This document shows, one piece after another, positions 6,693 through 20,533 of a DNA stretch of 33,643 nt. The position numbers were made by a program, and so were the translations under genes. The notes under the pieces are model-generated. The model saw only the letters and a list, made by a program, of their open reading frames with translations, did not search any database and had not been told where the DNA came from. Every line of letters begins with the position of its first letter. The first letter of the stretch is position 1. Source of the stretch: an uncultured archaeon (GTDB taxonomy: Archaea; Aenigmatarchaeota; Aenigmatarchaeia; CG10238-14; SCSR01). The stretch is taken from assembly GCA_964514495.1 (NCBI GenBank), contig CAZERL010000003.1, positions 1 through 33,643 on the forward strand, read 5' to 3'.

Positions 6693-6767
6693 ATGGATAA
6701 CAAAGGTGAATTAGTTTGGAAGCAAGGTGAACGCCTTTACACAAAGGGCGAGTGTCTTTTCAAGTAG
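6693..6767 (+). other. Zero-frame sensor ORF MDNKGELVWKQGERLYTKGECLFK with three putative +1 frameshift cassettes (Trp, Tyr, Phe) leading into aspartate kinase
   Basis: Strong SD GGGGTGA-N4-ATG; cassettes GGT GAA TTA GTT TGG (6705), GGT GAA CGC CTT TAC (6726), GGC GAG TGT CTT TTC (6747); the +1 frame is the kinase frame and opens at 6715, right after TAG 6712-6714. Confidence 0.78.
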
Positions 6768-7890
6768 ACCTAAGATTATAAAAATTGGAGGCTCATGTTT
6801 AAGTTCAACAGAAGATATCAAAAGAATTGCTGATATACTTATTGGTCGAATTTCAGATAATGAAAAATTAGTAATTGTAATTTCTGCAATGAAAGGGGAT
6901 ACGGATAGGTTATTGGAATTGGCCAATTCTATTTCACCTAACGTTAGTAAAGAAGATCTTGATCAAATATTGTCAATAGGAGAACGTCTTTCATCTAGGC
7001 TATTAACAGCCGAACTAAAAAGCAGGGGCATTTCAACTAGGTTAATAGATCCAGACAATGCAGTTATAATTACAGATAATATTCATGGCGATGCTAATCC
7101 TATAATAGAATTTACAAAAGAAAAGGTAAACGACAAATTAGTTCCCTTGTTACAAAATGGTACTACTATAGTTACAGGTGGCTTTTTTGGCAAAAGTACT
7201 AGTGGCAAAACGACAACATTGGGACGAGGGGGAAGTGATTCTACAGCAGTTCTTCTTGGTGATTGTTTAAACGCAGAAGAGATAGTTCTTTTAAAAGATG
7301 TAGATGGCTTATTAACTTCTGATCCCAAGAAAAATAAAAATTCAAAACTTATCAAAAAAATTACTGCAGAAGAAGCATTCATTCTTAGCTGTAGTGGAGC
7401 TAAGATTATACAACCTAAATCTTTGAAGTTAAAACCTGCAAATGTTCCAATAAAAATAGTTGGGAATGGTTCTATAGGGACAGTAATAGAAGGTAGTCTA
7501 AAATTAATAAACCATGATGAAAGACCTGTAGCCTTGTTAACTGTACTGACATCTAATATAGAAGCAGTACATGGCATAAAAAATCTAACGATGGTTAGAG
7601 ATGATAAGAGTGCAACACTAATTATATTTCAAGAAGATGTTTCAAAAGCAATTGATGAATTAAACCAATTAATAGAAAAAAGTAAGGCAAAAGCCTTTAC
7701 TGTTAAAGAAAATCTTGGATTAGTTTCAATAAAATCTAGCTCAGACACAATTCCTAAAATAGTAAATTCTTTGGAACAATCTGGTATACAAATTGAGAAT
7801 ATCATTTCAACACCTTCTACAATTAACATTCTCATCAAACTTTTTGACACAGATAGAACCGTACAGCTTTTGAAAGAGGTGATAAGATGA
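6727..7890 (+). CDS. lysC: Aspartate kinase (probably translated from ATG 6693 via +1 frameshift)
   Basis: IIKIGGS, VISAM, GER, TTLGRGGSD, DVDG..TSDP, GAKII; C-terminal ACT-like region; the only in-frame start before the N-terminal motif is a GTG inside an SD-like motif. Confidence 0.93.
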   Translation: MNAFTQRASVFSSRPKIIKIGGSCLSSTEDIKRIADILIGRISDNEKLVIVISAMKGDTDRLLELANSISPNVSKEDLDQILSIGERLSSRLLTAELKSRGISTRLIDPDNAVIITDNIHGDANPIIEFTKEKVNDKLVPLLQNGTTIVTGGFFGKSTSGKTTTLGRGGSDSTAVLLGDCLNAEEIVLLKDVDGLLTSDPKKNKNSKLIKKITAEEAFILSCSGAKIIQPKSLKLKPANVPIKIVGNGSIGTVIEGSLKLINHDERPVALLTVLTSNIEAVHGIKNLTMVRDDKSATLIIFQEDVSKAIDELNQLIEKSKAKAFTVKENLGLVSIKSSSDTIPKIVNSLEQSGIQIENIISTPSTINILIKLFDTDRTVQLLKEVIR

Positions 7891-8948
7891 AAAAGAAAAT
7901 ACCAGTAGCTGTTTTAGGTGCAACAGGATTAGTTGGGCAGAAATTTATAGAATTGTTACAAAACCATCCAATGTTTGAAATAGCAGAATTGGTTGCATCA
8001 GAAAAATCAGTTGGTAAAAGATTTGCAGAAGCTTGCAATCAAATTGTCATTCCACATATAATGCCTGAAATAGAAAATATAATCGTTAAACCAACAAACC
8101 CAAATGAGGTAAATTCTAAATTGGTATTTTCTGCATTACCAGCAGACATAGCACTTAATGTTGAGAATGATTTTGCACGAGCAGGAAAAATAGTCATAAG
8201 TAAAGCCAGCGCATTCAGAATGGTCAAAGATGTACCGTTACTTATACCAGAAGTTAATTCAGAACATTTAGAATTATTGAAAATACAAAAAAATCAAAGG
8301 GATTTGGAAGGGTGTATAATAACTGATCCCAATTGTACAACTGCAGGATTAGCTTTAGTCCTAAAACCAATATTAGATAATTTCGGAATTAAGCAAGTTA
8401 ACGTAACAACTATGCAGGCATTGAGTGGTGCTGGATTTCCAGGTGTCCCTTCCTTATCAATATCAGATAACATCATACCATTCATCGATGGTGAAGAAGA
8501 AAAAGTTGAGAGAGAAACTCTAAAGATTTTAGGTAAACTTAATGGAAACAAAATAGACAATGCTCACTTCAAAATATTTGCAACATGCACCAGAGTTCCA
8601 GTAATTGACGGTCATACAGAAGTTGTAAATATAATAACTGAAAGGGATGCGTCAATTGAAGATTTGAAGAAAGCTTTGACTGAATTTAAAGGATTACCAC
8701 AAGAGCTTAGACTACCAAGTGCCCCAGAAAAACCTATAATAGTGAGAGAAGAATTGGATAGACCACAACCTAAATTAGATAGAGATTCTGGTAGAGGAAT
8801 GAGTGTAACTGTTGGCAGAATTAAGAAACTAGGAGAATGTAATTTCTCTCTTGTACTTCTTGTTCATAATCTGGTGCGTGGAGCAGCTGGTGCAGGTGTT
8901 CTGGATGCTGAATTGTTAGCTAAAACTAACTTAGTGGAGGTGAGTTGA
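7887..8948 (+). CDS. asd: Aspartate-semialdehyde dehydrogenase (archaeal type)
   Basis: VLGATGLVGQ, PNCTT catalytic Cys, TMQALSGAG, RVPVIDGH, HNLVRGAAG. Confidence 0.96.
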   Translation: MKKKIPVAVLGATGLVGQKFIELLQNHPMFEIAELVASEKSVGKRFAEACNQIVIPHIMPEIENIIVKPTNPNEVNSKLVFSALPADIALNVENDFARAGKIVISKASAFRMVKDVPLLIPEVNSEHLELLKIQKNQRDLEGCIITDPNCTTAGLALVLKPILDNFGIKQVNVTTMQALSGAGFPGVPSLSISDNIIPFIDGEEEKVERETLKILGKLNGNKIDNAHFKIFATCTRVPVIDGHTEVVNIITERDASIEDLKKALTEFKGLPQELRLPSAPEKPIIVREELDRPQPKLDRDSGRGMSVTVGRIKKLGECNFSLVLLVHNLVRGAAGAGVLDAELLAKTNLVEVS

Positions 8949-9733
8949 TGAACGGTAAGGAAATTAGATTAAACAGAATATTGGAAAAAGGTAAGGCAAT
9001 AATCATACCAATGGATCATGGGACTAGTGAAGGTCCTGTAACAGGATTAACGGATATGAACGATATGGTAAGGAAATTAGGTTCCGGTGGTGCCACTGCT
9101 GTATTGTTGCATAAAGGGATAATAAAATCTTTGAAAGAACCACCTAAATGCGGACTGATAATGCATGCATCAGCTAGTACAAAACTTGCATCCGATGTAA
9201 ATAATAAAGTTCTTGTATCTGAAGTGGAAGAAGCTGTCACGCTTGGTGCTGATGCTTTTTCTGTTCATATAAACATCGGTGGGAGTGATGCTGAACCAGA
9301 AATGTTGAAAGCATTAGGAAAAGTTGCAAGGGATTGCGAAAAAATGCAAATGCCATTGTTGGCAATGATGTATGCTAGAGGCAAAAATATACAAAACCAA
9401 CTTGATGCGGATGTCCTTGCGCACGTTGCTAGAGTTGGTGCAGAATTAGGGGCTGACTTAGTCAAATGTCCATATTCAGGAGATCCTGAAACTTTCAAAA
9501 AAGTAGTTAAGGGATGTCCAGTACCTGTAATAATAGCTGGTGGTCCTAAATATGAAACTGACAGAGAAGTATTAGAAATGGTTAGAGGGGCTATGGATGC
9601 TGGTGCAATAGGAGTTTCTTTAGGAAGGAATGCATTCCAGCATAAAAATCCAACACAGATAGTAAAGGCAATAAGAAGCATCATAGTAAAGGACTCCAGT
9701 GTGGAAGAAGCATTAAAGCTATTAGGTGAGTGA
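8945..9733 (+). CDS. 2-amino-3,7-dideoxy-D-threo-hept-6-ulosonate (ADH) synthase, class I aldolase DhnA family (AroA')
   Basis: GKEIRLNRI, PMDHG, LLHKG, AMMYARG, ELGADLVK, VIIAGGPK, GRNAFQH; context of asd and DHQ synthase II; ATG at 8948. Confidence 0.9.
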   Translation: MMNGKEIRLNRILEKGKAIIIPMDHGTSEGPVTGLTDMNDMVRKLGSGGATAVLLHKGIIKSLKEPPKCGLIMHASASTKLASDVNNKVLVSEVEEAVTLGADAFSVHINIGGSDAEPEMLKALGKVARDCEKMQMPLLAMMYARGKNIQNQLDADVLAHVARVGAELGADLVKCPYSGDPETFKKVVKGCPVPVIIAGGPKYETDREVLEMVRGAMDAGAIGVSLGRNAFQHKNPTQIVKAIRSIIVKDSSVEEALKLLGE

Positions 9734-10654
9734 ATGAGAGAGCTTATAGTAAAAACTGATAACCCAAAAATTCAGAAAGAAGCAAAAGGTTTAGGCTTAG
9801 AAATAGTTACAGAAGACGAAGCCATAGAAGTTAAAAATAGGAAAGACGAAGACGAAGCCATAAAGTTAGCTAGCAAAAAAGATAAGCTCATAATCTCGTC
9901 GCCAGATTGGAAAATAATTCCGTTGGAAAATTTAGTTTCAAAATTAAAAGGAAAAGTTAAATTAATTGCAAAAGTGAAAACAGCGGAGGAAGCAAAACTA
10001 GCTTTAGGTGCATTGGAACTTGGTGCTGATGGTGTTTTACTAGATACTGACAATGTGAATGAAATCAAGAAAACAATGTCTGCAATAGAAGAATTAGAAG
10101 AGAAAGGTAAGCTTCAGTTAGTTGAAGCTACTGTTACAAACATTAACAAACTGGACTTGGGTGCAAGATCCTGCATAGATACATGTAGTCTGATGGAAAA
10201 AGGAGAAGGCATGTTGGTTGGTTGCTCTTCTCAAGGCATGTTGTTAGTTCAAGCAGAAGTTGAGGAAAATCCGAGTGTTTCTCCAAGACCTTTTAGAGTC
10301 AATGCTGGAGCTGTTTCACTATATGTGTTAGCTCCAAACAACAAGACAAGGTACATAGAAGAAGTAAAAGCTGGCGATGAAGTTCTATTAGTAAACAAAA
10401 ATGGAAAAATTAGGTCAGCTTTCGTGGGTAGATCTAAGATTGAAATAAGGCCGTTGACATTAGTAGAAGCTGAAAGTAATGGAAAAGTTGCTAAAGCAAT
10501 ACTACAAACAGCTGAAACGATAAGACTTGTAACTACCGAAGATAGTAAACCAGTAACAGAGCTTAAAGTTGGAGATAAGATACTGACTTACTTTCAAGAG
10601 GGTGGAAGGCATTTTGGAACTTTAGTTAAAGATGAATACTGTGTGGAAAAATGA
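9734..10654 (+). CDS. 3-dehydroquinate synthase II (AroB')
   Basis: DWKIIPLENL, LELGADGV, R.CIDTCSLM..GEGMLVG, RPFRVNAGAV, QTAETIRL, GRHFG. Confidence 0.93.
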   Translation: MRELIVKTDNPKIQKEAKGLGLEIVTEDEAIEVKNRKDEDEAIKLASKKDKLIISSPDWKIIPLENLVSKLKGKVKLIAKVKTAEEAKLALGALELGADGVLLDTDNVNEIKKTMSAIEELEEKGKLQLVEATVTNINKLDLGARSCIDTCSLMEKGEGMLVGCSSQGMLLVQAEVEENPSVSPRPFRVNAGAVSLYVLAPNNKTRYIEEVKAGDEVLLVNKNGKIRSAFVGRSKIEIRPLTLVEAESNGKVAKAILQTAETIRLVTTEDSKPVTELKVGDKILTYFQEGGRHFGTLVKDEYCVEK

Positions 10655-11348
10655 GTTGACTTCTATGATCAGAATATGCGCAAGTATAACTGAAAGCAAT
10701 ATAGAAGATTGCCTTAAAGCTATTTCCAAAGCAAAAGAACTAGGTGCCAGAATAGTAGAACTACGTATAGACTTTTTGGATAACCATGAAGAGATTTCAA
10801 AAATAATTCAGCAGGCAAAACTACCTTTAATAGCGACAAACAGAAGTAAAAAAGAAGGCGGGGAATTTGAAGGAAATGAAGAAGAAAGGATTAATAGTCT
10901 CATCAATGCTATTGACGATGGATGTGAATTTGTTGACATAGAGTTAAATACAAACAAGAAATTGAGAGGACGAGTTACAAATCTTGCAAGAAGAAACAAA
11001 TGTGAAGTAATAGTTTCTATTCATGATTTTAAGAAAACTCCTAATATGAAAAATTTAAATAAATTATTAACTGAAGAAAAAGCGATAGCTGACATAGGGA
11101 AAATAGTTACTTTTGGTAACAAAAATGAAGATACTATAAAAATTTTCAATTTATTGAGAATAGCCAATTCTAGAAATTTCCCTTTGATAACTTTTGCTAT
11201 GGGTTCTTTATGTAGTTTCTCTAGAATAGTGGCTCCACTATTTGGTTCATATTTAACATATGTGTCGGTAGGCAAACCGTCTGCAATTGGACAGATGAAC
11301 ATAAGGGAGATGGTAAATGTTTACAAGCAATTAGGTGTGAAAATATGA
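10632..11348 (+). CDS. aroD: Type I 3-dehydroquinate dehydratase
   Basis: ICASI, VELRIDFL, IATNR..EGG, VDIEL, SIHDF..TP, FAMG, SRI, SAIGQ; true start probably ATG 10665. Confidence 0.93.
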   Translation: MNTVWKNELTSMIRICASITESNIEDCLKAISKAKELGARIVELRIDFLDNHEEISKIIQQAKLPLIATNRSKKEGGEFEGNEEERINSLINAIDDGCEFVDIELNTNKKLRGRVTNLARRNKCEVIVSIHDFKKTPNMKNLNKLLTEEKAIADIGKIVTFGNKNEDTIKIFNLLRIANSRNFPLITFAMGSLCSFSRIVAPLFGSYLTYVSVGKPSAIGQMNIREMVNVYKQLGVKI

Positions 11349-12205
11349 TTTCTAGCAAAACTAAATTATTATGCCTTATAGGCAATCCTGTAGAGCATAG
11401 TATATCACCTCAAATGCATAATGCTATGTTTAAAGAATTGAATTTAGATTTCGCACTTGTCTCATTCAAAGTTGAAGAAACTGAATTGTCTGATGCTGTT
11501 AAAGGTATTAGAGCATTAGGCATAAAAGGAGGCAATGTAACATTACCACACAAGACAAGCATAATGAAACTTTTAGATGAAATAGATGACTCATCAAAAG
11601 AAGTGGATTCTGTAAATACTTTTTTAAATGATAATGGCATACTTAAGGGGTTCAATACAGATGGTATAGGTGCGTTAAAGGCTTTGGAAGAAAATGGTAT
11701 ATCACTTAAAAATAAGAAGGTCGTCATTATTGGTGCAGGTGGTGCATCAAAATCAATATCACATGTTGTTGCAATGGAAAGTCCATCTGAACTTGTGATC
11801 TTAAATAGAAATATAAGTAAAGCCAAATCAATCGCAGACAAGATAAATAAAAAACTTGGTAAGAAAGCAAGAGTATTTGAACTAAGTTCAGAAAATTTAA
11901 AATCAGAATTGAAAGATACCGATATACTAATTAATTGCTCATCAGTTGGTATGAAGCCCAATTTAAATGAAACTACTGTGTCTAAAGAATTTCTTCATAA
12001 AAATCTTACAGTAATGGACATTATATACAATCCATTGGAAACTAGACTACTAAAAGAAGCCAAATCAGTAGGGGCAAAGACAATTAACGGTATTGGCATG
12101 TTGGTTAATCAAGGTGCCTTAGCGTTTGAAATATGGACTGGTAAAAAAGCTCCTGTTGAATTGATGAGAAGAGTTGCAATAGAAAACTTGAAGGGATTTA
12201 CATGA
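11345..12205 (+). CDS. aroE: Shikimate dehydrogenase
   Basis: IGNPVEHSISPQMHN, GGNVTLPHK, SVNT, GFNTDG, GAGGA, DIIYNPLET.LL, MLVNQG. Confidence 0.96.
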   Translation: MISSKTKLLCLIGNPVEHSISPQMHNAMFKELNLDFALVSFKVEETELSDAVKGIRALGIKGGNVTLPHKTSIMKLLDEIDDSSKEVDSVNTFLNDNGILKGFNTDGIGALKALEENGISLKNKKVVIIGAGGASKSISHVVAMESPSELVILNRNISKAKSIADKINKKLGKKARVFELSSENLKSELKDTDILINCSSVGMKPNLNETTVSKEFLHKNLTVMDIIYNPLETRLLKEAKSVGAKTINGIGMLVNQGALAFEIWTGKKAPVELMRRVAIENLKGFT

Positions 12206-12711
12206 AAGATAATGTTGCTTTAATTGGATTCATGGGTACTGGAAAGAATTCAGTAGGGATTTCATTAGCCAAAAGGTTCAACAAAAAATTTATTGATACA
12301 GATATCCTAATTGAAAAATTAGCAGGTAAATCCATTCCAAAGATATTCAAAGAAGATGGGGAAATCAAATTCCGTGAATTAGAAATAGAAGCGATAAAGA
12401 AAGTCGCAAAAATGAAAAATGTTGTCATATCGTGTGGTGGAGGTGTCGTCCTAAATCAAATAAATATAGATAGGTTAAGAAAAAACTCAAAAATAATCTT
12501 GCTTACAGCTTCACCCAATGTTATTTTAAAAAGAATAAAAAGTGGTAAACAAAATCGTCCTCTTTTAAAAGTCTCTAATAAACTCAATACGGTTAAACAA
12601 CTTCTATCATTAAGAAAGCCTTTGTACAAAATGTCAGCAGATTACACAATAGATACTTCTAGGTTAAATGAAGGAAAGGTTGTTAACAAAACAATAGAAC
12701 TTTTGAGGTAA
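12202..12711 (+). CDS. aroK: Shikimate kinase (bacterial NMP-kinase-fold type)
   Basis: LIGFMGTGK Walker A, DTD, GE..FRELE, SCGGGVV, RPLL, R..LY. Confidence 0.94.
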   Translation: MKDNVALIGFMGTGKNSVGISLAKRFNKKFIDTDILIEKLAGKSIPKIFKEDGEIKFRELEIEAIKKVAKMKNVVISCGGGVVLNQINIDRLRKNSKIILLTASPNVILKRIKSGKQNRPLLKVSNKLNTVKQLLSLRKPLYKMSADYTIDTSRLNEGKVVNKTIELLR

Positions 12712-12715
12712 TTTT

Positions 12716-13972
12716 ATGATAGCTACAATCGAAACTAGTGAAATAAATGGAACTGTTGCTTCACCTCCTTCTAAGAGTTACACCCATAGGTCTATAATAT
12801 GTGCAGCTCTGGCAAATGGACGAAGTAAAATCATGAATCCTTTGTTAGCTGATGATACACATGCAACTATTGATGTATTAAGCAAAATAGGAGTAGGGAT
12901 TTCTGGAAATAATGATCATATAATTGTCAAAGGAAATGGTCTTTCTGAACCTAAAGAGGAATTATTTTGCAAGGAATCTGGAACTACTCTTAGGTTGATG
13001 ACATCTGTGTGTTCTTTAATCAAAGGCAGATGTAAACTAACTGGTAGCTTGTCACTATTAAAAAGACCTATAAAACCTTTAGTTGATGCTCTTGAAAAGT
13101 TAGGTGTCAATTGCTCTTGTAATGGCAACTTCCCACCTGTTATTGTAAATAACAACCTTATGGGTGGCATAACTAAAGTGCCTGGTGATATCAGCTCACA
13201 ATTTATTTCTGGATTACTCTTAGTTGCGCCGTTAACACAAAAAGAAACACAAATTTTACTGTCAACAGAACTTGAATCAAAACCTTACGTGATGATGACA
13301 ATTGATGTGCAAAAAGATTTTGGAATTGAAATAAAAACTAGCAAAAATTTAAGGAAATTTTCTGTAACTAGACAAGAGTATAAACCAAGAAATTACAAAG
13401 TAGAAGGCGATTGGTCTGCTGCATCTTTTCCACTAGCTGCAGGTGCAATTGCTGGTAGAGTTGAAGTAACTAACATAGATAATGAAAGCTTACAGGCAGA
13501 TAGAAAAATAATTGATGTACTGAAAATGATGGGTGCTAGCCTAAAGACTACATCAAAAGGTATTTTAGTGATTAAATCTAGGTTAAATGCAATAGATTTT
13601 GATGTTTCAAACTGTCCAGATTTATTTCCAATAGTATGTGTATTATGTTCTGCTGCTAATGGTACTAGCAAAATTTCTGGAATTAGAAGATTGCTGTTGA
13701 AAGAATCCAACAGGCTTGATGAGATGAAAAATGGTCTAACAAAAATGGGAGTAAAAGTAAAACAATCAAGAGACTCTATACAAATAACAGGTTCTCAAGT
13801 TAAAGGAAGTACAATAAATTCAAATGACCATAGGATTTCAATGGCATTTGGTATCTTAGGAATGATTGCTAAAGGTAAAACTATAATAAAAAATGCAGAA
13901 TGTGTTAGTAAATCTTTCCCAGAATTTTGGAATTATTTAAGCAAGTTAAATTCGAATCTTGATATAAGGTGA
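12716..13972 (+). CDS. aroA: EPSP synthase (3-phosphoshikimate 1-carboxyvinyltransferase)
   Basis: PPSKSYTHR, ESGTTLR, ISSQFISGLL, SKPYV.MT, EGDWS, KESNR, DHRISM, KSFPEF. Confidence 0.96.
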   Translation: MIATIETSEINGTVASPPSKSYTHRSIICAALANGRSKIMNPLLADDTHATIDVLSKIGVGISGNNDHIIVKGNGLSEPKEELFCKESGTTLRLMTSVCSLIKGRCKLTGSLSLLKRPIKPLVDALEKLGVNCSCNGNFPPVIVNNNLMGGITKVPGDISSQFISGLLLVAPLTQKETQILLSTELESKPYVMMTIDVQKDFGIEIKTSKNLRKFSVTRQEYKPRNYKVEGDWSAASFPLAAGAIAGRVEVTNIDNESLQADRKIIDVLKMMGASLKTTSKGILVIKSRLNAIDFDVSNCPDLFPIVCVLCSAANGTSKISGIRRLLLKESNRLDEMKNGLTKMGVKVKQSRDSIQITGSQVKGSTINSNDHRISMAFGILGMIAKGKTIIKNAECVSKSFPEFWNYLSKLNSNLDIR

Positions 13973-13976
13973 CATT

Positions 13977-15071
13977 ATGAATGGCAATAGTATAGGCAAA
14001 GCGTTCAAGGTAACAAGTTTCGGAGAAAGTCATGGAAGATGTGTAGGTGCAATTATAGACGGTTGTCCTGCAGGTTTAAAGCTAGATACAGAAAAAATTC
14101 AGAGAGATCTAGATAGAAGAAAACCTGGACAAAGTACAATAACAACTGCCAGGAGGGAGGAAGACAAATTAGAAATAATATCAGGGGTTTTAAACGAATT
14201 TACTACTAGTGCACCAATTTGTATGCTAACATGGAACAAAGATGTAATTTCGAGTGGCTATGAACAAAGAAGATTTACAGTGAGACCAGGCCATGCTGAT
14301 TACACAGCATTCATGAAATACGGCGGGTTCGAAGATTACAGGGGAGGTGGAAGGTTTTCTGCTAGAATAACCACTGGATTTGTGATGGCAGGCGCTTTAG
14401 CAAAACAATTACTGAGTTTGTTAAATATAGAAATTCTAGCGCATACTGTTGAAATTGGTGGAATCAAAGCTAGAGAAATGTCGGTTGACGATATAAGAAA
14501 AAATACGGAAACAAATGAGGCAAGATGTGCTGATTCAGAAACTGCTAAAAAAATGATAGAAAGAATAAAGCAAGTAAGACTTGAAAAGGATAGCTTAGGA
14601 GGACTTGTTGAAGGTATTGCTTTGAATGTTCCAGTTGGTTTAGGTGAACCTGTTTTTGATAATTTGGATAGTGAATTAGCTAAAGCACTATTTGCTATAC
14701 CTGCAGTTAAAGCAGTAGAATTTGGTTTAGGATTTCAAAGTAGTAGACTAAAAGGCTCTGAAAATAATGATATTTTTGTTATGAAAAAAGGTAAGATTGT
14801 AACTAAAACAAATAATTCTGGGGGAATATTGGGCGGCTTAAGTAATGGTATGCCTATTGTTGTTAAAGTGGGTTTTAAACCTATATCATCCATTCCAAAA
14901 GAACAAAAAACTATTAACATGAAAGAAATGAAAGAAACGGAAATAAAATCTATTGGTAGATTTGACCCTTGCCCTGTGCCAAGAGCAATTCCTATTGTTG
15001 AATCTATGATGGCTATAGTGTTGTGCGACTTTGCACTTCGTTCACAATTGATTCCAAGAGTGATTAAATGA
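13977..15071 (+). CDS. aroC: Chorismate synthase
   Basis: FGESHG, RRKPGQ, RPGHAD, GGGRFSARIT, DSLGG, NNSGGILGG, GRFDPC. Confidence 0.97.
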   Translation: MNGNSIGKAFKVTSFGESHGRCVGAIIDGCPAGLKLDTEKIQRDLDRRKPGQSTITTARREEDKLEIISGVLNEFTTSAPICMLTWNKDVISSGYEQRRFTVRPGHADYTAFMKYGGFEDYRGGGRFSARITTGFVMAGALAKQLLSLLNIEILAHTVEIGGIKAREMSVDDIRKNTETNEARCADSETAKKMIERIKQVRLEKDSLGGLVEGIALNVPVGLGEPVFDNLDSELAKALFAIPAVKAVEFGLGFQSSRLKGSENNDIFVMKKGKIVTKTNNSGGILGGLSNGMPIVVKVGFKPISSIPKEQKTINMKEMKETEIKSIGRFDPCPVPRAIPIVESMMAIVLCDFALRSQLIPRVIK

Positions 15072-15346
15072 AATCACAAAAGATCATTATAGAACAAAGG
15101 GAAAGGATAGATAAAATAACTGAAAAATTGATTGAATTAATTGCCGAGAGAAAGAAACTGACATTTAAAATTAGTGAGCTAAAGAAGAAGTCTAGCATAC
15201 CTTCGATTGATCATGAACGGGAAAAGAAAATAATTAGCAATGCCAAAAAACTTGCTAAAAAGTTCAAGGTTAGTCCTAGTCTCGTAGAAAACATAATGAA
15301 ATTACTGATTAATGATTCTAGAAAGACCAAGGTTAATTTGTTATGA
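15068..15346 (+). CDS. Chorismate mutase type II (AroQ)
   Basis: RERIDKI..KLIELIAER, K, D.ERE AroQ pattern; 92 aa helical. Confidence 0.88.
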   Translation: MKSQKIIIEQRERIDKITEKLIELIAERKKLTFKISELKKKSSIPSIDHEREKKIISNAKKLAKKFKVSPSLVENIMKLLINDSRKTKVNLL

Positions 15347-16152
15347 GAATTGCATTTCAAGGAGAAATGGGAGCATATAGTGAAGAAACAGCTTTTAAGT
15401 ATTTTGGCAATTCTATTGTCACTATACCATGTAAAGATTTGAAAAAAGTGTTTAATGAAGTAGAAAAACGAAAAGCAGATTACGGCATTGTACCAGCTGA
15501 AAATTCCATAGAAGGTAGTATTATTCAAACTTATGATTTGTTACTTGAACATAACTTACATATTATTGGTGAAGTAATTCAAAGAATTGTTCACTGTTTG
15601 ATTGCTAGTAAAAGTTCTAATTTAAGATCTATAAAAACTGTATATTCACATCCTCAAGCCTTAGGCCAATGTAGAGATTTTTTGGACAAATCAAAATGCG
15701 AAGTCATGCCAACATATGACACTGCTGGTAGTGTTAAAATGATAAAGGAAAGGAAACTGAAATATGTTGCGGCCATAGCAAGTGAGCTATCTGCAAAAAT
15801 TTATGATATGAAAATTCTAGCAAAGGGGATTGAAGGTAATCGCAACTTTACAAGGTTTTTTATAATTGGCAAAAATGAAACAAAGCCTACAGGAAATGAT
15901 AAAACATCTTTAGCACTTGTGATAAAACATATACCAGGTTCTTTGGCTAGCGCGTTGAAATTATTTGCATCTGAGAAAATTAACTTAACTCATATTCAAT
16001 CTAGACCGCTGTTGGGCAAGCCATGGGAATATACTTTTTACATAGATTATGAAGGGCATAAAGATGATGAACATTTTAAAAAAGCACTTAACAATCTAAA
16101 CAAGGTTTCGTTATTTGTGAAAGTATTGGGCTCCTATCCTAAGGTGAAGTAA
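15343..16152 (+). CDS. pheA: Prephenate dehydratase
   Basis: IAFQGEMGAYSE, PAENSIEG, SHPQALGQC, NFTRF, ACT domain with IQSRP, LGSYP. Confidence 0.96.
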   Translation: MRIAFQGEMGAYSEETAFKYFGNSIVTIPCKDLKKVFNEVEKRKADYGIVPAENSIEGSIIQTYDLLLEHNLHIIGEVIQRIVHCLIASKSSNLRSIKTVYSHPQALGQCRDFLDKSKCEVMPTYDTAGSVKMIKERKLKYVAAIASELSAKIYDMKILAKGIEGNRNFTRFFIIGKNETKPTGNDKTSLALVIKHIPGSLASALKLFASEKINLTHIQSRPLLGKPWEYTFYIDYEGHKDDEHFKKALNNLNKVSLFVKVLGSYPKVK

Positions 16153-17220
16153 ATGCTATATGATATACATGAAAAAGTAAAGGAACTTGAAAGTAAAGGA
16201 AAGGAGATAATAAAATTCAACATAGGCGATCCTGATCAAGATACTGATAAAAGAATTGTAAAAATGGCTTTGGAAGCAATTGAAAGGGGTGAAACTAAAT
16301 ATGGAAGTTCTTTTGGAAATCATGAGCTTAGAAAAGAATTGGCGGATATCCATAATGTTGATATAAATAAGGTAATTATCACACCAGGTTCTAAATGGGC
16401 AATATTTTCCACTATGTATTTATTACTTAAAGAAGGGGATAATGTTGTAATACCATCCCCACACTATACTGCATACGAACTTATTGCAAAACAAGTTAAG
16501 GCAAAGGTAAAGCTTTTGGAATGCTCATTAGATAATGATTGGGATATTGATGTAGACAAATTGGAAAATTTGATAGATGACAAAACTAAAATCATTGTAC
16601 TAAATAGTCCTAATAACCCTACGAGTAAAGTTATTAAAAAGAAAACTTTGGAAAATATAGTAGAAACAGCTAACAAAAAAAATATTACTATTCTATCAGA
16701 TGAAGTTTATTCTGATATATCTTTTGTTAAAACGACGAGTATACTAGATATCGATAAAAATCATATTTTTGTGAACAGTTTTTCTAAGACATTTGCTATG
16801 ACAGGATGGAGAATTGGGTATGCGATCATTAGTAAAGAGTTAGCAAACAAAATAGCTACCTTAAATCAAATAACAATAACCAATGTGCCGTTATTTATAC
16901 AAGCAGCTATTTTAAAAGTTCTGAAATATAAAGAGAGAATTTCTAGCAAAATGAGAAATATTTACAAAAAGAGGGCGGATTTAGCTTACAAAATACTATC
17001 CAAAACAAGATTAAAATTCTCGAAGCCTGATGCACCATTTTATCTTTTCCCATATTGTAGAATGAATTCTGAAGAACTTGCCGATAAATTAATTCAAAAA
17101 GGTATAGCAATTGTACCAGGAACAGCTTTTGGTAATTACAAAGAATACTTTAGGTTAGCATTAACATTATCAGATGCAGAAATTAAGACTGGTCTAGAGA
17201 AATTGGTTGAGGTCTTATGA
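16153..17220 (+). CDS. PLP-dependent class I/II aminotransferase (probably aromatic amino acid aminotransferase)
   Basis: IGDPD, LNSPNNPT, SDEVY, NSFSKTFAMTGWRIGY; lies between pheA and tyrA. Confidence 0.9.
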   Translation: MLYDIHEKVKELESKGKEIIKFNIGDPDQDTDKRIVKMALEAIERGETKYGSSFGNHELRKELADIHNVDINKVIITPGSKWAIFSTMYLLLKEGDNVVIPSPHYTAYELIAKQVKAKVKLLECSLDNDWDIDVDKLENLIDDKTKIIVLNSPNNPTSKVIKKKTLENIVETANKKNITILSDEVYSDISFVKTTSILDIDKNHIFVNSFSKTFAMTGWRIGYAIISKELANKIATLNQITITNVPLFIQAAILKVLKYKERISSKMRNIYKKRADLAYKILSKTRLKFSKPDAPFYLFPYCRMNSEELADKLIQKGIAIVPGTAFGNYKEYFRLALTLSDAEIKTGLEKLVEVL

Positions 17221-18053
17221 AAGTAGCAATAATTGGTGGAGCGGGGAAAATGGGTAAGTGGTTTTGTAATTTTTTCCTAAATGAAGGATATGAAGTAATA
17301 GTTTCTGGTAGAAAGGAAACCAAACTAAATAAATTAGTTAAGCAATTTAATGTGAAATCAGCGAAGAACAATATAGAAGCTATAAAAAATGCTGATTTGA
17401 TAATGATTGCTGTCTTATTTCAAGATTTTGAAAGTGTAGTAAAGGAAATTGCACCCGCTATTAATAATACCCAAAAAGTCGTAGATATAACATCAATTAA
17501 AGATCAACCAGTAAAAATAATGCACAAATACATAAAAAGAGGTATTACGTTGGGCGCACATCCCATGTTTGGTCCTAATGTTAAAGACAATAATCATAAT
17601 TTTGTTCTAACACCTGTAACTAAAAAAGAAAGGGCATATGCACAAGAATTTTCAAATTGGTTAACAAAGAAAGGCTTTAATGTTAGCATTATGCCACCTA
17701 GGAGGCATGATGAGTTAATGTCTACTATTTTAGGACTGCCACATTTTATAGGTCTTGTCACTGCAGATACTTTGACAAACTTAAATCTTAAAGAACTTAA
17801 AAAGGTTTGTGGTACAAGTTTTAACATGCTTTTAGAGCTCACAACTAATGTTATATCAAATGACCCAGAATTTTATTCGCACTTACAGATGATCTTACCA
17901 AAAATCAATAAAGTTGAGTCTTTATTTTCTGATAAAACTAAAAAATGGCTAACCATTGTAAATAAAGAAGATAAATCACAATTCAAAAGAGAAATGATAA
18001 AAATAGCACAAAAAAGCAAATATTTATTAGTTAGTAAGGACGAAAATATATAG
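17217..18053 (+). CDS. tyrA: Prephenate/arogenate dehydrogenase
   Basis: IIGGAGKMG, DITSIK, HPMFGP, HDELM..ILGLPH. Confidence 0.93.
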   Translation: MKVAIIGGAGKMGKWFCNFFLNEGYEVIVSGRKETKLNKLVKQFNVKSAKNNIEAIKNADLIMIAVLFQDFESVVKEIAPAINNTQKVVDITSIKDQPVKIMHKYIKRGITLGAHPMFGPNVKDNNHNFVLTPVTKKERAYAQEFSNWLTKKGFNVSIMPPRRHDELMSTILGLPHFIGLVTADTLTNLNLKELKKVCGTSFNMLLELTTNVISNDPEFYSHLQMILPKINKVESLFSDKTKKWLTIVNKEDKSQFKREMIKIAQKSKYLLVSKDENI

Positions 18054-18255: not shown

Positions 18256-18288
18256 TAGGGCAAAAAAGTTGCCCTAAAGGTTTATAAA
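18256..18288 (+). promoter_or_regulatory. Putative trp-operon promoter: perfect palindrome TAGGGCAA-N5-TTGCCCTA abutting BRE/TATA (TTTATAAA 18281-18288)
   Basis: 8-bp perfect inverted repeat 18256-18276; TATA begins 37 nt before ATG 18318. Confidence 0.65.
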
Positions 18289-18317
18289 TACGAGTATATT
18301 AATTATAAATTGATTGT

Positions 18318-18353
18318 ATGAAGAGTGATTGTGTTTGGCATACCAAGAAGTGA
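18318..18353 (+). other. Zero-frame sensor ORF MKSDCVWHTKK with a Trp +1 frameshift cassette leading into the wHTH gene
   Basis: (G)AGT GAT TGT GTT TGG; the +1 frame is the wHTH ORF; near-leaderless ATG. Confidence 0.7.
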
Positions 18354-18624
18354 ATTTAAGATTTTCTTAGGACAATCGCTCAACAAAAAAGAAACTGAAT
18401 TGCTTCGTTCTTCCAATAGGTTACGAGGAAATACCTTTTATTATGTGGTTAAGAGGTTGTCAGAGAAGGGGTATTCACCAAGTACAATCAAATTTGTTCT
18501 AAAGCGACTTAAATATTTAAACTTGGTTGATTTTGGCGATGGCAAAAGCAGAGGCAAGCCCCTCGTATTAACTGCGTTAGGTCAGATATTCCTAGAAGTC
18601 ATCAGTGGTGAAAAGTATGGGTGA
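18325..18624 (+). CDS. Winged helix-turn-helix protein, putative transcription regulator of trp/aro genes
   Basis: Basic 99 aa protein; SPSTIKFVLKRLKYLNLVDF recognition helix and LTALGQ wing end. Confidence 0.72.
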   Translation: MIVFGIPRSEFKIFLGQSLNKKETELLRSSNRLRGNTFYYVVKRLSEKGYSPSTIKFVLKRLKYLNLVDFGDGKSRGKPLVLTALGQIFLEVISGEKYG

Positions 18625-18679
18625 ATATCTTTGGAAATGCAATGAACTTTGTAGCTCCCAAAAGAATCAAAATAGATAA
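18617..18679 (+). other. Zero-frame sensor [23 protein letters not shown] with a Trp +1 frameshift cassette leading into trpE
   Basis: SD GGTGA(18607)-N5-ATG; GGT GAA TAT CTT TGG; the +1 frame is trpE. Confidence 0.7.
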
Positions 18680-19991
18680 GAAAATAGATACAAAATTTTC
18701 GCCTTTTGAAATTTACTGTAAGATTAATGAAAATTTTGGAACTTCTTTCCTTTTAGAATCAAGAGAAGGTAAAAGAAAGTTGGCTAGATTCTCTTTTATA
18801 GGATTTGAGCCTTCTCATATATTAAAAGCAAATAGCAAATTCCTAACTATCAATGATAAGAAGATTATTTGTAAAGATCCCTTATTAGAATTGCGTTCAA
18901 TAGTTTCTAAAAAATTTGGGATTAGATCTGGTTTCTTAGGCGGTGCAGTAGGATACATAACCTATGATTATGTCAGAAGTATAGAAACTATACCTAATAC
19001 AACAAAAGATGAATTCAAGTTTCCAGATTTCGAATTCGGTATATTTCAAGATTGCTTAGTATTTAATCATAGGAAAAATGAATTGAGATATCTTTCATGT
19101 GATAAGAATAGATTACCTTTAATTAAAAAAATCATACATAAAGAAACCAATAACTCTAATCTAGAGATTGGAAAAATAAAAGCAAACATGAGTAAAAGAA
19201 GATTTGAAAACATCGTAAGCAAATCTAAAGAATACATAAAAAGTGGTGATATACTCCAAGTGGTTTTGTCTAGAAGGTACAAATTCTCTTTTAAAGGAAA
19301 CCTTATTGAATTTTACAAAAATCTCAGAAAAATCAACCCATCACCATACATGTATTACATAAAATTTGGAAAAAGACAAATTATTGGAACTAGTCCTGAG
19401 AATCTAGTTAGAGTAGAAGGCAAAAAAATAGATAGCTATGCAACCATTGCTGGAACAAGACATAGAGGGAAAACAAAAGCCGAAGATAAAAAGTTAGAAA
19501 AGGAATTGTTGTCAGATAAAAAGGAACGAGCAGAACATCTGATGCTTGTAGATCTGACAAGGAATGACATTGGAAAGGTATCTAGTTTTGGTTCTGTCAA
19601 AGTTCCAGAGTTCATGCAAGTATACAAATTCAGTCATGTACAACATATTGTATCTAGAGTCGCAGGAAAATTAAACAACCATGATTGTTTTGACGTATTC
19701 AAATCCATATTCCCTGCTGGAACAGTCAGTGGTGCACCGAAGATTAGAGCAATGGAAATAATTGAAGAATTAGAACCTGCTAAAAGAGGACCTTATGCTG
19801 GTGCAGTTGGTTATTTTTCCTTTAATGGTAATGCTGACTTTGCGATAACTATCAGAAGCCTATTTGCAAATGACAATAAGGCATTTATTCAGGTTGGAGC
19901 CGGCATAGTATACGATTCTATTCCAGAAAGAGAATTTTTTGAAACAGAAAATAAAGCAAAGGCTTTGTTAAAGGCTTTAAAAGGTGATTAA
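18621..19991 (+). CDS. trpE: Anthranilate synthase component I
   Basis: [66 protein letters not shown]. Confidence 0.96.
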
Positions 19992-19993
19992 AA

Positions 19994-20533
19994 GTGAGTC
20001 AATTAGATGAAATTAAAAATGAATTAAAAATATATTCAGATTTCCCAAAAAAAGGAATTAAGTTTTTAGATATCAGTCCATTAATCAGCAATCCAAAGAA
20101 TTTTAGAACAGTAATAAATGCTCTATACAAAAAATACAAAAATTCTGGAATAAATAAAATAATTGCTGTCGAATCTCGTGGGTTCTTGTTTGCTAGTGCA
20201 TTAGCATTGTTAATGAAAGCTCCTTTGGTTATGGCTAGGAAGAAAGGCAAACTTCCAGGTACTGTTATTAGTTATTATTACAAATCAGAATATGGTAAAA
20301 ACGTACTTGAACTACGAAAAGATTCAATTAATCCAAATGATAAACCTTTGGTACTTGATGATGTTTTCGCAACTGGAGGTACGCTTAATGCAGTTATATC
20401 CATTTTGAAGAAAATAGGCTGTTCTGATTATAGATGTTGTACAATAATAAATCTGACGGATATCGAAAAGAAATATAATCCTGGTAATGTTAACTCTTTG
20501 ATTGATTTTTCTGTTAATGGTGAGATTCTATGA
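19994..20533 (+). CDS. apt: Adenine phosphoribosyltransferase-like type I PRTase
   Basis: [50 protein letters not shown] loop. Confidence 0.88.

Follow-up and report, generated by a model that had tools for sequence, protein, structure and literature searches.

A tryptophan codon at a putative programmed +1 frameshift site before archaeal trpE, with related modules at other amino-acid biosynthesis genes

The window analysed here is a 33,643-nucleotide (nt) stretch of DNA from an uncultured archaeon of the phylum Aenigmatarchaeota (contig CAZERL010000003.1 of assembly GCA_964514495.1). It carries the tryptophan biosynthesis gene trpE and, before it on the same (+) strand, a short leader open reading frame (ORF) through which we propose that trpE is expressed by a programmed +1 frameshift. 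The product is identified as TrpE by the NCBIfam model TIGR01820 (TrpE-arch; 527.7 bits versus a cut-off of 512.05) and matches the Pfam families Chorismate_bind (PF00425) and Anth_synt_I_N (PF04715). The leader ORF (18617-18679) opens with ATG 18617-18619, reads ATG GGT GAA TAT CTT TGG AAA ... TAA, encodes 20 residues with a single Trp codon at position 6, and ends at the stop TAA 18677-18679. A Shine-Dalgarno (SD) sequence, GGTGA (18607-18611), lies five bases 5' of the leader ATG, within the end of an upstream winged helix-turn-helix (wHTH) ORF, and an internal SD-like hexamer, GGTGAA (18620-18625), lies three bases 5' of the CTT of the proposed shift site CTT TGG (18629-18634; CTT 18629-18631, TGG 18632-18634). 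The trpE frame is +1 relative to the leader, is open from 18612 and reads GTG 18621, AAT, ATC, TTT (18630-18632) and GGA 18633; from the slip codon TTT to its stop it spans 18630-19991. Leader and trpE overlap by 59 nt, leaving no spacer. The 3' end of the 16S rRNA of the assembly (contig C51) is ...GGATCACCTCCT, in which UCACC is complementary to GGTGA, and the internal hexamer may pair with the rRNA and stimulate the slip. A scan of the window with Rfam returned nothing but a tRNA. Two codons in the trpE frame are possible conventional starts: GTG 18621, which lies inside the internal hexamer and overlaps TGA 18622-18624, the stop of the 99-codon upstream ORF (as GTGA), and ATG 18642. An SD at a useful distance precedes only the leader ATG (GGTGA-N5), and neither of these two codons has one. 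An earlier note on this DNA had laid out the SD, the leader codons and the leader stop, with the two in-frame starts as a caveat; every coordinate proved exact, and both starts are there. The window alone cannot decide how trpE is entered, because either of them could start the gene conventionally.

Taxonomic relatives were unable to test conservation, because nearly all of them lack TrpE: it was found in 0 of 40 close relatives of the assembly and in 3 of 371 genomes of the phylum including this one (2 of 370 others). Relatives by sequence were therefore used instead. The closest TrpE found, in a scan of metagenome contigs, is that of locus L150 (68% identity), whose leader ATG lies about 55 nt downstream of a TATA-like box. 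This leader reads ATG ACC GGT GAA TGT TTT TGG CTT GGA AGA TAA (MTGECFWLGR, then stop), with trpE in the +1 frame. The window and L150 have in common the hexamer, the three-base spacer, the NTT codon and TGG, and nothing is kept after TGG. In a scan of genome contigs with TrpE, 23 of the 25 loci checked had a conventional start, the TrpE match at L025 contained a stop, and the only cassette among the 25 was that of L002, from a Bathyarchaeota metagenome-assembled genome (ATG GGG AAT CGC CTT TGG). The trpE frame of L002 has no ATG, GTG or TTG for 456 nt after its opening, though the conserved N-terminal domain is encoded there. The L002 cassette led to a survey of the whole class Bathyarchaeia.

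TrpE was found in 124 of the 301 genomes of the class, with full-length matches 50-58% identical to that of the window. The survey set comprised 111 loci (L002, a set of 30 and a set of 80), of which 110 were scored; L149, lacking a tblastn match, was not. Nearly full-length matches in genomes G230, G159, G316 and G111, together with truncated, fragmentary and weak second matches, were left out. Of the 110 scored loci, 98 have a start codon (ATG, GTG or TTG) followed by N9-NTT-TGG just where the trpE frame opens, and this motif is in frame -1 to trpE. Within the intervals searched, whose median length was 162 nt, neither of the two other frame relations occurred at any locus (0/110 each), and substituting any of 13 other codons for TGG likewise gave 0/110. 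The leader starts are ATG in 93 of the 98 loci, TTG in 4 and GTG in 1; the codon that would occupy the ribosomal P site is CTT in 47, GTT in 33, ATT in 11 and TTT in 7, and the A-site codon is TGG in all. Four further positions not imposed by the search are conserved, G+4, G+5, A+7 and T+8, i.e., RGGNAT-N3-NTT-TGG, and many loci carry an AGGAG-like SD and a TTTAAATA-like box upstream. After TGG there is almost no conservation, and the length of the 0-frame ORF ranges from 7 to 51 codons; the conserved part of the leader ORF is its first six codons only, and these are conserved in kind.

Most of these relatives have no other visible way into the gene. In 74 of the 98 loci, the stretch from the opening of the trpE frame to the site contains no ATG, GTG or TTG in that frame. 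Among these 74, the next canonical start lies 90-426 nt inside the gene in 31 and within 90 nt in 29, and in 14 none was seen in the at least 250 nt fetched; starts up to 426 nt downstream fall inside the conserved N-domain. In L110, L137, L146 and L145, a trpE-frame stop stands directly before TTT, so that the frame is enterable only at that codon; the leader of the first three, ATG GGT GAY CTA GTT TGG, is the form closest to that of the window. At the site itself the trpE frame invariably has TTT, whereas elsewhere in 33 of these genes Phe is encoded by TTT 398 times and by TTC 422 times, indicating a constraint on the nucleotides T-T-T-G-G rather than on the Phe residue. We regard it as very likely that a +1 change of frame at NTT-TGG is needed in the Bathyarchaeia family.

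Twelve loci lack the strict motif, namely L145, in which six codons precede the TGG of the motif, L147, L083, L138 and eight ordinary genes. L083 (MRNHLDNQTTKQ...) and L138 (MSDLPSTLRP...) are natural in-frame fusions, whose N-termini are colinear with the trans-frame products predicted for their neighbours, MRNYL|GTQKPK... and MGDSL|GTLRSI.... L147 (G291:C40:1633-2533) is a second trpE copy that has CTT TAG for CTT TGG, a leader reading MGDPL before the stop, and an in-frame GTG; its A site would thus hold a stop codon, like that of RF2.

Initiation at a non-canonical codon in the trpE frame, for example the conserved ATH codon of 'G-I-x-F-G', would make any frame change unnecessary, and many loci do read GGN ATH NNN TTT GGN just after a stop in that frame. 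It is nevertheless a very remote prospect, given the four loci with a stop directly before TTT and nothing upstream in frame, the reading GTG AAT ATC at that place in the window, and the in-frame variants that start with the leader residues themselves (MRNHL and MSDL). Hardly more credence can be given to chance, assembly error or pseudogenes, under which the out-of-frame ATG would be accidental and the start-less relatives mis-assembled or dead. All the genomes are metagenome-assembled, and a hisG locus (L308, see below) shows an indel-like break in a run of A; however, 98 of 110 independent assemblies show the same offset at the same spot with an invariant TTTGG, the other frames and codons give 0/110, the genes are otherwise intact at 453-475 codons, and the site is not a homopolymer. 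Transcriptional slippage was considered and set aside: the T run is only 3-5 bases long and variable, and the invariant TGG would be left unexplained.

The same layout is found before other biosynthetic genes. Within the window, a sister leader (MDNKGELVWKQGERLYTKGECLFK, 6693-6767, + strand) heads the aromatic operon some 12 kb from trpE and contains three modules, GGTGAA-TTA-GTT-TGG, GGTGAA-CGC-CTT-TAC and GGCGAG-TGT-CTT-TTC (Trp, Tyr and Phe), with the aspartate-kinase frame (that of GTG 6727) in +1 relative to it, as the earlier note had described. Aspartate kinase of the aromatic-operon type was found in 46 of 151 genomes, and among the 30 best loci examined, 5 (L347-L351) carry Phe and Tyr modules before the kinase, with the consensus GGT GAC NNN NTT TTC GGT GAT GGC GTT TAC (MGD-LFGDGVY). 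In these five, the start is ATG, GTG or TTG, followed by the modules directly or after a few codons, and the kinase is in the +1 frame, open about 50-60 codons upstream of the conserved kinase start. A GGTGAA, GGCGAG or GGTGAY hexamer precedes each module of the aromatic-operon leaders, in the window as in the relatives. Among four aspartate kinases checked in four Bathyarchaeia genomes, L179 heads an aromatic operon, and the other three (L180-L182) proved to be ordinary genes with normal starts and were set aside.

A search of five large genomes with the pattern ATGRGGNATNNNNTT gave 64 matches versus 31 for a reversed control; 5 fall at trpE and 2 at a synthase-like gene, and the remaining matches look like ordinary gene starts or chance. 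In two of the five genomes, the same prefix is followed by an Ile codon, ATG GGG TAT YGC TTT ATT, and the +1 ORF behind it, of about 500 codons, scores above the cut-off both for an NCBIfam 2-isopropylmalate synthase subfamily and for the archaeal isopropylmalate/citramalate/homocitrate family. An isopropylmalate/citramalate-synthase-like gene of this kind is present in 209 of the 301 genomes of the class. All 30 of the best loci (L251-L280; for example L251 = G237:C1:325830-330329, leader MGYCFI...) have a start (ATG 29, GTG 1) followed by GGG NAT YGC TTT ATY, with the gene in the +1 frame. The Ile codon is ATT in 18 and ATC in 12, an alternation that is silent in the leader frame and gives Phe or Ser in the gene frame; a stop directly follows it in 9/30 loci, and 15/30 have no in-frame start upstream. 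Judging from the codon, the enzyme would be the citramalate synthase of the Ile pathway. No such leader was seen before a leuA paralogue (0/20 loci) or hisG (0/30 loci), indicating that gene starts in these genomes do not carry the module as a rule.

The sensor codon thus fits the pathway in three gene families: Trp at trpE, where TGG precedes the gene in 99 Bathyarchaeia loci as well as in the window and L150, Ile at the synthase-like gene, and Phe plus Tyr at the aromatic operons, with Trp added in the window. These data bear on the possibility that the frameshift is real without sensing Trp, i.e., that ribosomes slip at NTT-TGG at a fixed rate, so that TrpE would be constitutively low or peptide and enzyme would be made in a constant ratio, with TGG kept only as a slow or rare codon. 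The CTT TAG of L147, which shows that another slow A site can stand there, speaks for it. We consider it quite improbable, since the codon tracks the pathway from family to family, TGG is invariant in the 99 loci with no other codon in 110, and the alternation of ATT and ATC keeps Ile in the leader frame.

How far the cassette of the window exceeds chance depends on what is counted. The 9-mer TATCTTTGR, which the RF2 site also has, is present 4 times in the window versus 1.32 expected, a count reached by 4 of 100 shuffles, so the 9-mer alone is not beyond chance. When the 1.04-Mb assembly was scanned for the full context (an ATG-initiated ORF of at most 45 codons containing GGYGAD-N3-NTT-NNN, and a +1 ORF no shorter than 120 codons), 5 sites were found: the three modules of the 6693 leader, the trpE leader and one on contig C54. 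Scans with permuted hexamers gave 0-2 sites. The C54 site is probably due to chance, its target frame having its own TTG/GTG. By context and by conservation, the trpE cassette is beyond chance. Accordingly, the earlier note's argument that recurrence 12 kb away speaks against chance holds for the context and the conservation, and fails for the RF2-like 9-mer by itself. Its proposal of a +1 slip from CTT to TTT into trpE, for which it had made conservation in relatives a test, finds support in L150 and in the 98 of 110 Bathyarchaeia loci, 74 of them with no in-frame start before the site, and the match between codon and pathway that it had pointed out extends to Ile at the synthase-like gene and to Phe and Tyr at the aromatic operons of relatives.

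A relaxed scan of the organism's own genome gave 12 matches versus 1-8 in controls, and the seven outside the window were judged to be chance or left unresolved. One of them, on C34 (+ strand 1940-2902, with the gene on the - strand), has an SD-led leader ATG AGT GAT TTA CTT CAC with a His codon after CTT; the +1 ORF of 317 codons has no assigned function and has its own ATG four codons later, and the match is probably a chance one.

We propose the following mechanism for the window. Translation would begin at the SD-led ATG 18617 and produce Met-Gly-Glu-Tyr-Leu, leaving the ribosome with CUU in its P site and UGG in its A site. When charged tRNA(Trp) is ample, UGG would be read, the 0 frame kept and translation ended at 18679, yielding the 20-residue peptide and no TrpE. 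When charged tRNA(Trp) is scarce, the ribosome would wait, and the peptidyl-tRNA(Leu) would slip from CUU to UUU (18630-18632), aided by pairing of the SD-like GGUGA(A), three bases upstream, with the 3' end of 16S rRNA. GGA would then be read, TrpE would be made as MGEYL-GNAMNF..., and translational coupling would carry expression on to the overlapping trp genes downstream. It is likely, in our assessment, that trpE of the window is expressed through and regulated by such a slip, with a hungry sense codon as the sensor.

The principal competing explanation is a conventional start of trpE, either at GTG 18621 by termination-reinitiation from the wHTH ORF or at ATG 18642, with the ATG 18617 ORF being incidental or a merely modulating upstream ORF. 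Several observations favour it and weigh against the frameshift: both codons are present and in frame, the GTGA overlap is a classic coupling arrangement, of a kind common in operons, and some in-frame start at or before the site is found in 24 of the 98 relatives, as well as in L150, which has both a GTG and a TTG in frame. The frameshift reading is further weakened by the eight of 110 loci with a plainly conventional trpE, and by the GTT and ATT P codons (44 of 98), from which the tRNA could re-pair with TTT only by tolerating a mismatch at the first position; RGGNAT, too, would pair imperfectly with the rRNA. The mechanism is not general, as hisG and the leuA paralogue do not use it. Only one close relative, L150, was found for the gene of the window, and in the TrpE tree the two form a clade of their own (100/99) outside the Bathyarchaeia clade (99/96), so that the two sets of cassettes may be either homologous or convergent. 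The conventional-start L062 is nested within the frameshift clade of the same tree. Finally, the evidence consists of sequences from uncultured organisms, and the direction of regulation, more TrpE at low Trp, rests on logic and on the match of codon to pathway.

A conventional start is nonetheless unlikely. GTG 18621 appears to be a by-product of the conserved GGTGA, for it recurs with the hexamer in L140, L143, L150 and the aromatic leaders, and the SD that both in-frame codons lack is present before ATG 18617. The hexamer-N3-NTT-aromatic codon layout occurs five times in the window, and a conventional start leaves this recurrence, as well as the conservation in L150 and 99 Bathyarchaeia loci, unexplained. 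Nor does a plain upstream-ORF model make regulatory sense: a ribosome halted at TGG would mask both GTG 18621 and ATG 18642, so that Trp shortage would lower TrpE, the wrong direction.

The proposed +1 frameshift has its nearest parallel in RF2 (prfB), where three bases likewise separate the SD-like element from the shift codon. A 2016 review (PMC5009743) describes further likenesses of RF2: a functional protein encoded +1 to a short 0-frame ORF, as in the window and 98 of 110 relatives; a shift site CUU_U, with UUU_U in a minority, both forms of which occur in the archaeal trpE loci; a 5' SD-like stimulator a few bases upstream, here GGTGAA, whose stimulation would be analogous; a slow A-site codon whose decoding rate depends on what the product or pathway supplies; and, in some species, in-frame versions without the cassette, comparable to L083 and L138. 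RF2 differs in that its A site holds an in-frame stop, UGA, read by RF2 itself, whereas the trpE leader presents a sense codon, UGG, read by an aminoacyl-tRNA, and the module elsewhere uses AUY, UUC and UAC as A-site codons. Moreover, trpE and the other targets are archaeal amino-acid biosynthesis genes, whereas Archaea have no RF2, and the site lies at codons 5-6 here rather than at codon 26 as in E. coli, with modules that can be repeated in one leader. The trpE cassette would work like RF2 and is not a member of the RF2 family, its sensor being an aminoacyl-tRNA.

Other recoding systems share parts of this design. At the yeast site CUU_AGG_C of Ty1, ABP140 and EST3, a P-site tRNA(Leu) on CUU also slips +1 with a slow sense codon in the A site (PMC5009743), whereas the slowness there comes from a constitutively rare tRNA and not from the supply of an amino acid made by the downstream gene, and the system is eukaryotic, lacks an SD-like stimulator and forms no feedback loop. 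In bacterial trp, phe, ilv and his attenuation, the speed of the leader-ORF ribosome at codons for the end product reports the supply of charged tRNA and sets expression. Those attenuators likewise use a short leader ORF with a codon for the regulating amino acid; unlike them, the trpE leader has no terminator/antiterminator choice, overlaps its gene by the 59 nt noted above and shows no conservation after TGG, and it has one sensor codon per module rather than a run, with a change of frame by the sensing ribosome as the output. The antizyme +1 frameshift is, similarly, both sensor and effector of a metabolic feedback loop, as covered in a 2021 review (PMC8211752), and differs in that a small molecule (polyamine) is sensed at a stop codon, in eukaryotes. 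That review gives the -1 frameshift of Saccharolobus solfataricus fucA1 as the only demonstrated programmed frameshift of a cellular archaeal gene, and lists archaeal +1 cases only as suggestions, in a virus and for Mg-chelatase; the fucA1 shift, unlike the one proposed here, goes in the -1 direction on a heptamer, and no regulatory logic is known for it. On hungry-codon frameshifting that yields starvation-specific products, the 2016 review states that 'no examples are known' (PMC5009743). A full-text literature search, with most subscription journals outside it, returned no frameshift in trpE and no control of archaeal amino-acid biosynthesis by frameshifting, and on recoding in Bathyarchaeota it gave nothing beyond PMC8211752.

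If the proposed mechanism is correct, hungry-codon frameshifting would have its first natural example, and Archaea their first programmed +1 frameshift in cellular genes. Little is known of how most archaea match amino-acid biosynthesis to the supply of charged tRNA, and control through leaders has been seen as a bacterial trait. On balance we think it probable that Archaea possess a modular, ribosome-borne amino-acid sensor in the role of bacterial attenuation, by which an enzyme is made only when its aminoacyl-tRNA is scarce. Such a module would comprise the SD-like hexamer, three bases, an NUU codon and one end-product codon, and would serve Trp at trpE, Ile at the synthase-like gene and, with Phe, Tyr and Trp modules in series as an OR gate, the aromatic pathway. 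Being about 18 nt long, self-contained and movable, the element could serve as a compact sensor of charged tRNA. There is also a consequence for annotation, as gene callers are bound to misplace or truncate the starts of such genes or to label them pseudogenes. For 45 of the 98 trpE loci, the nearest canonical start lies at least 90 nt inside the gene or none was found, and metabolic reconstructions of Bathyarchaeia may therefore under-call the synthesis of Trp, Ile and aromatic amino acids.

The genes around the trpE leader form two blocks. The aromatic common-pathway operon (6727-18053) starts with aspartate kinase and aspartate-semialdehyde dehydrogenase and also encodes a DeoC/LacD-family aldolase, which we read as the ADH synthase, DHQ synthase II, aroD/E/K/A/C, chorismate mutase, prephenate dehydratase, an aminotransferase and prephenate dehydrogenase. 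It is followed in order by the wHTH ORF, trpE, a phosphoribosyltransferase-domain ORF, trpG, trpD, trpC and trpB, the last four assigned by us from their Pfam families; stops and starts overlap among the trp genes downstream of trpE. The phosphoribosyltransferase-domain ORF (19994-20533; 179 codons, GTG start), between trpE and trpG, is a gene not usually seen in trp operons. Like those of its relatives, the assembly has a size of about 1 Mb, and a complete aromatic and tryptophan pathway in it is a gene set unusual for the lineage. The G+C content of the contig, 0.358, is close to the 0.375 of the assembly. The rarity of TrpE in the phylum points to horizontal acquisition or a mis-binned contig.

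The 99-codon wHTH ORF (18325-18624, + strand) may itself lie behind a Trp module. A second short ORF (18318-18353, + strand) reads ATG AAG AGT GAT TGT GTT TGG ... TGA (MKSDCVWHTKK), the wHTH ORF is in the +1 frame relative to it, and its layout, AGTGAT-N3-GTT-TGG, matches that of the trpE module; the apparent GTG start of the wHTH ORF at 18325 sits within AGTGAT. The wHTH ORF has no Pfam match; it gives a weak match (E 2.1e-5, 24.6 bits, below the cut-off of 130) to NF053753, the TK0271-family transcriptional activator, and a homologue search returned weak matches only (24-31 bits), to longer proteins. The TK0271 family we take to be an activator of aromatic amino-acid genes in Thermococcus. 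If the 18318 module is real, the putative wHTH activator may be under the same Trp switch, possibly placing a Tar-like activator of the pathway under the same module as its target. A TATA-like sequence, TTTATAAATA (18281-18290, + strand), lies 28-37 nt upstream of ATG 18318 and, judged from general knowledge of archaeal promoters and their start sites, is likely the promoter of a wHTH-trp transcript with a very short mRNA leader. Just upstream of it, and past the end of the aromatic operon at 18053, lies an inverted repeat, GGGCAA-AAAAG-TTGCCC (18258-18277), which could be a terminator or an operator.

Different leader arrangements were seen at other biosynthetic loci of Bathyarchaeia. Most of the aromatic operons in the class have a separate small ORF upstream that ends in a run of Tyr and Phe codons (e.g., ...SFDYYFYYYYFS, then stop); it was flagged by script in 22/30 loci (among L333-L346, L352-L356 and L358-L361), and L353 looks alike by eye. 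At least in L333, L337 and L344, inspection by eye shows an inverted repeat GCCCAG...CTGGGC after the small ORF, 20-80 nt before the kinase start. This ORF and hairpin look like a leader-peptide attenuator of bacterial type, in which case both designs coexist in the class; we know of no description of such a leader in Archaea. The hisG loci L303-L306, L308 and L316 share a conserved inverted repeat, GTGGGA...TCCCAC, with AAATTTCCCAC after it; the repeat separates hisG from a TATA-like box and is probably the operator for a His regulator. At the hisG start of L308, the frame is broken within a run of A, in a way resembling an indel.

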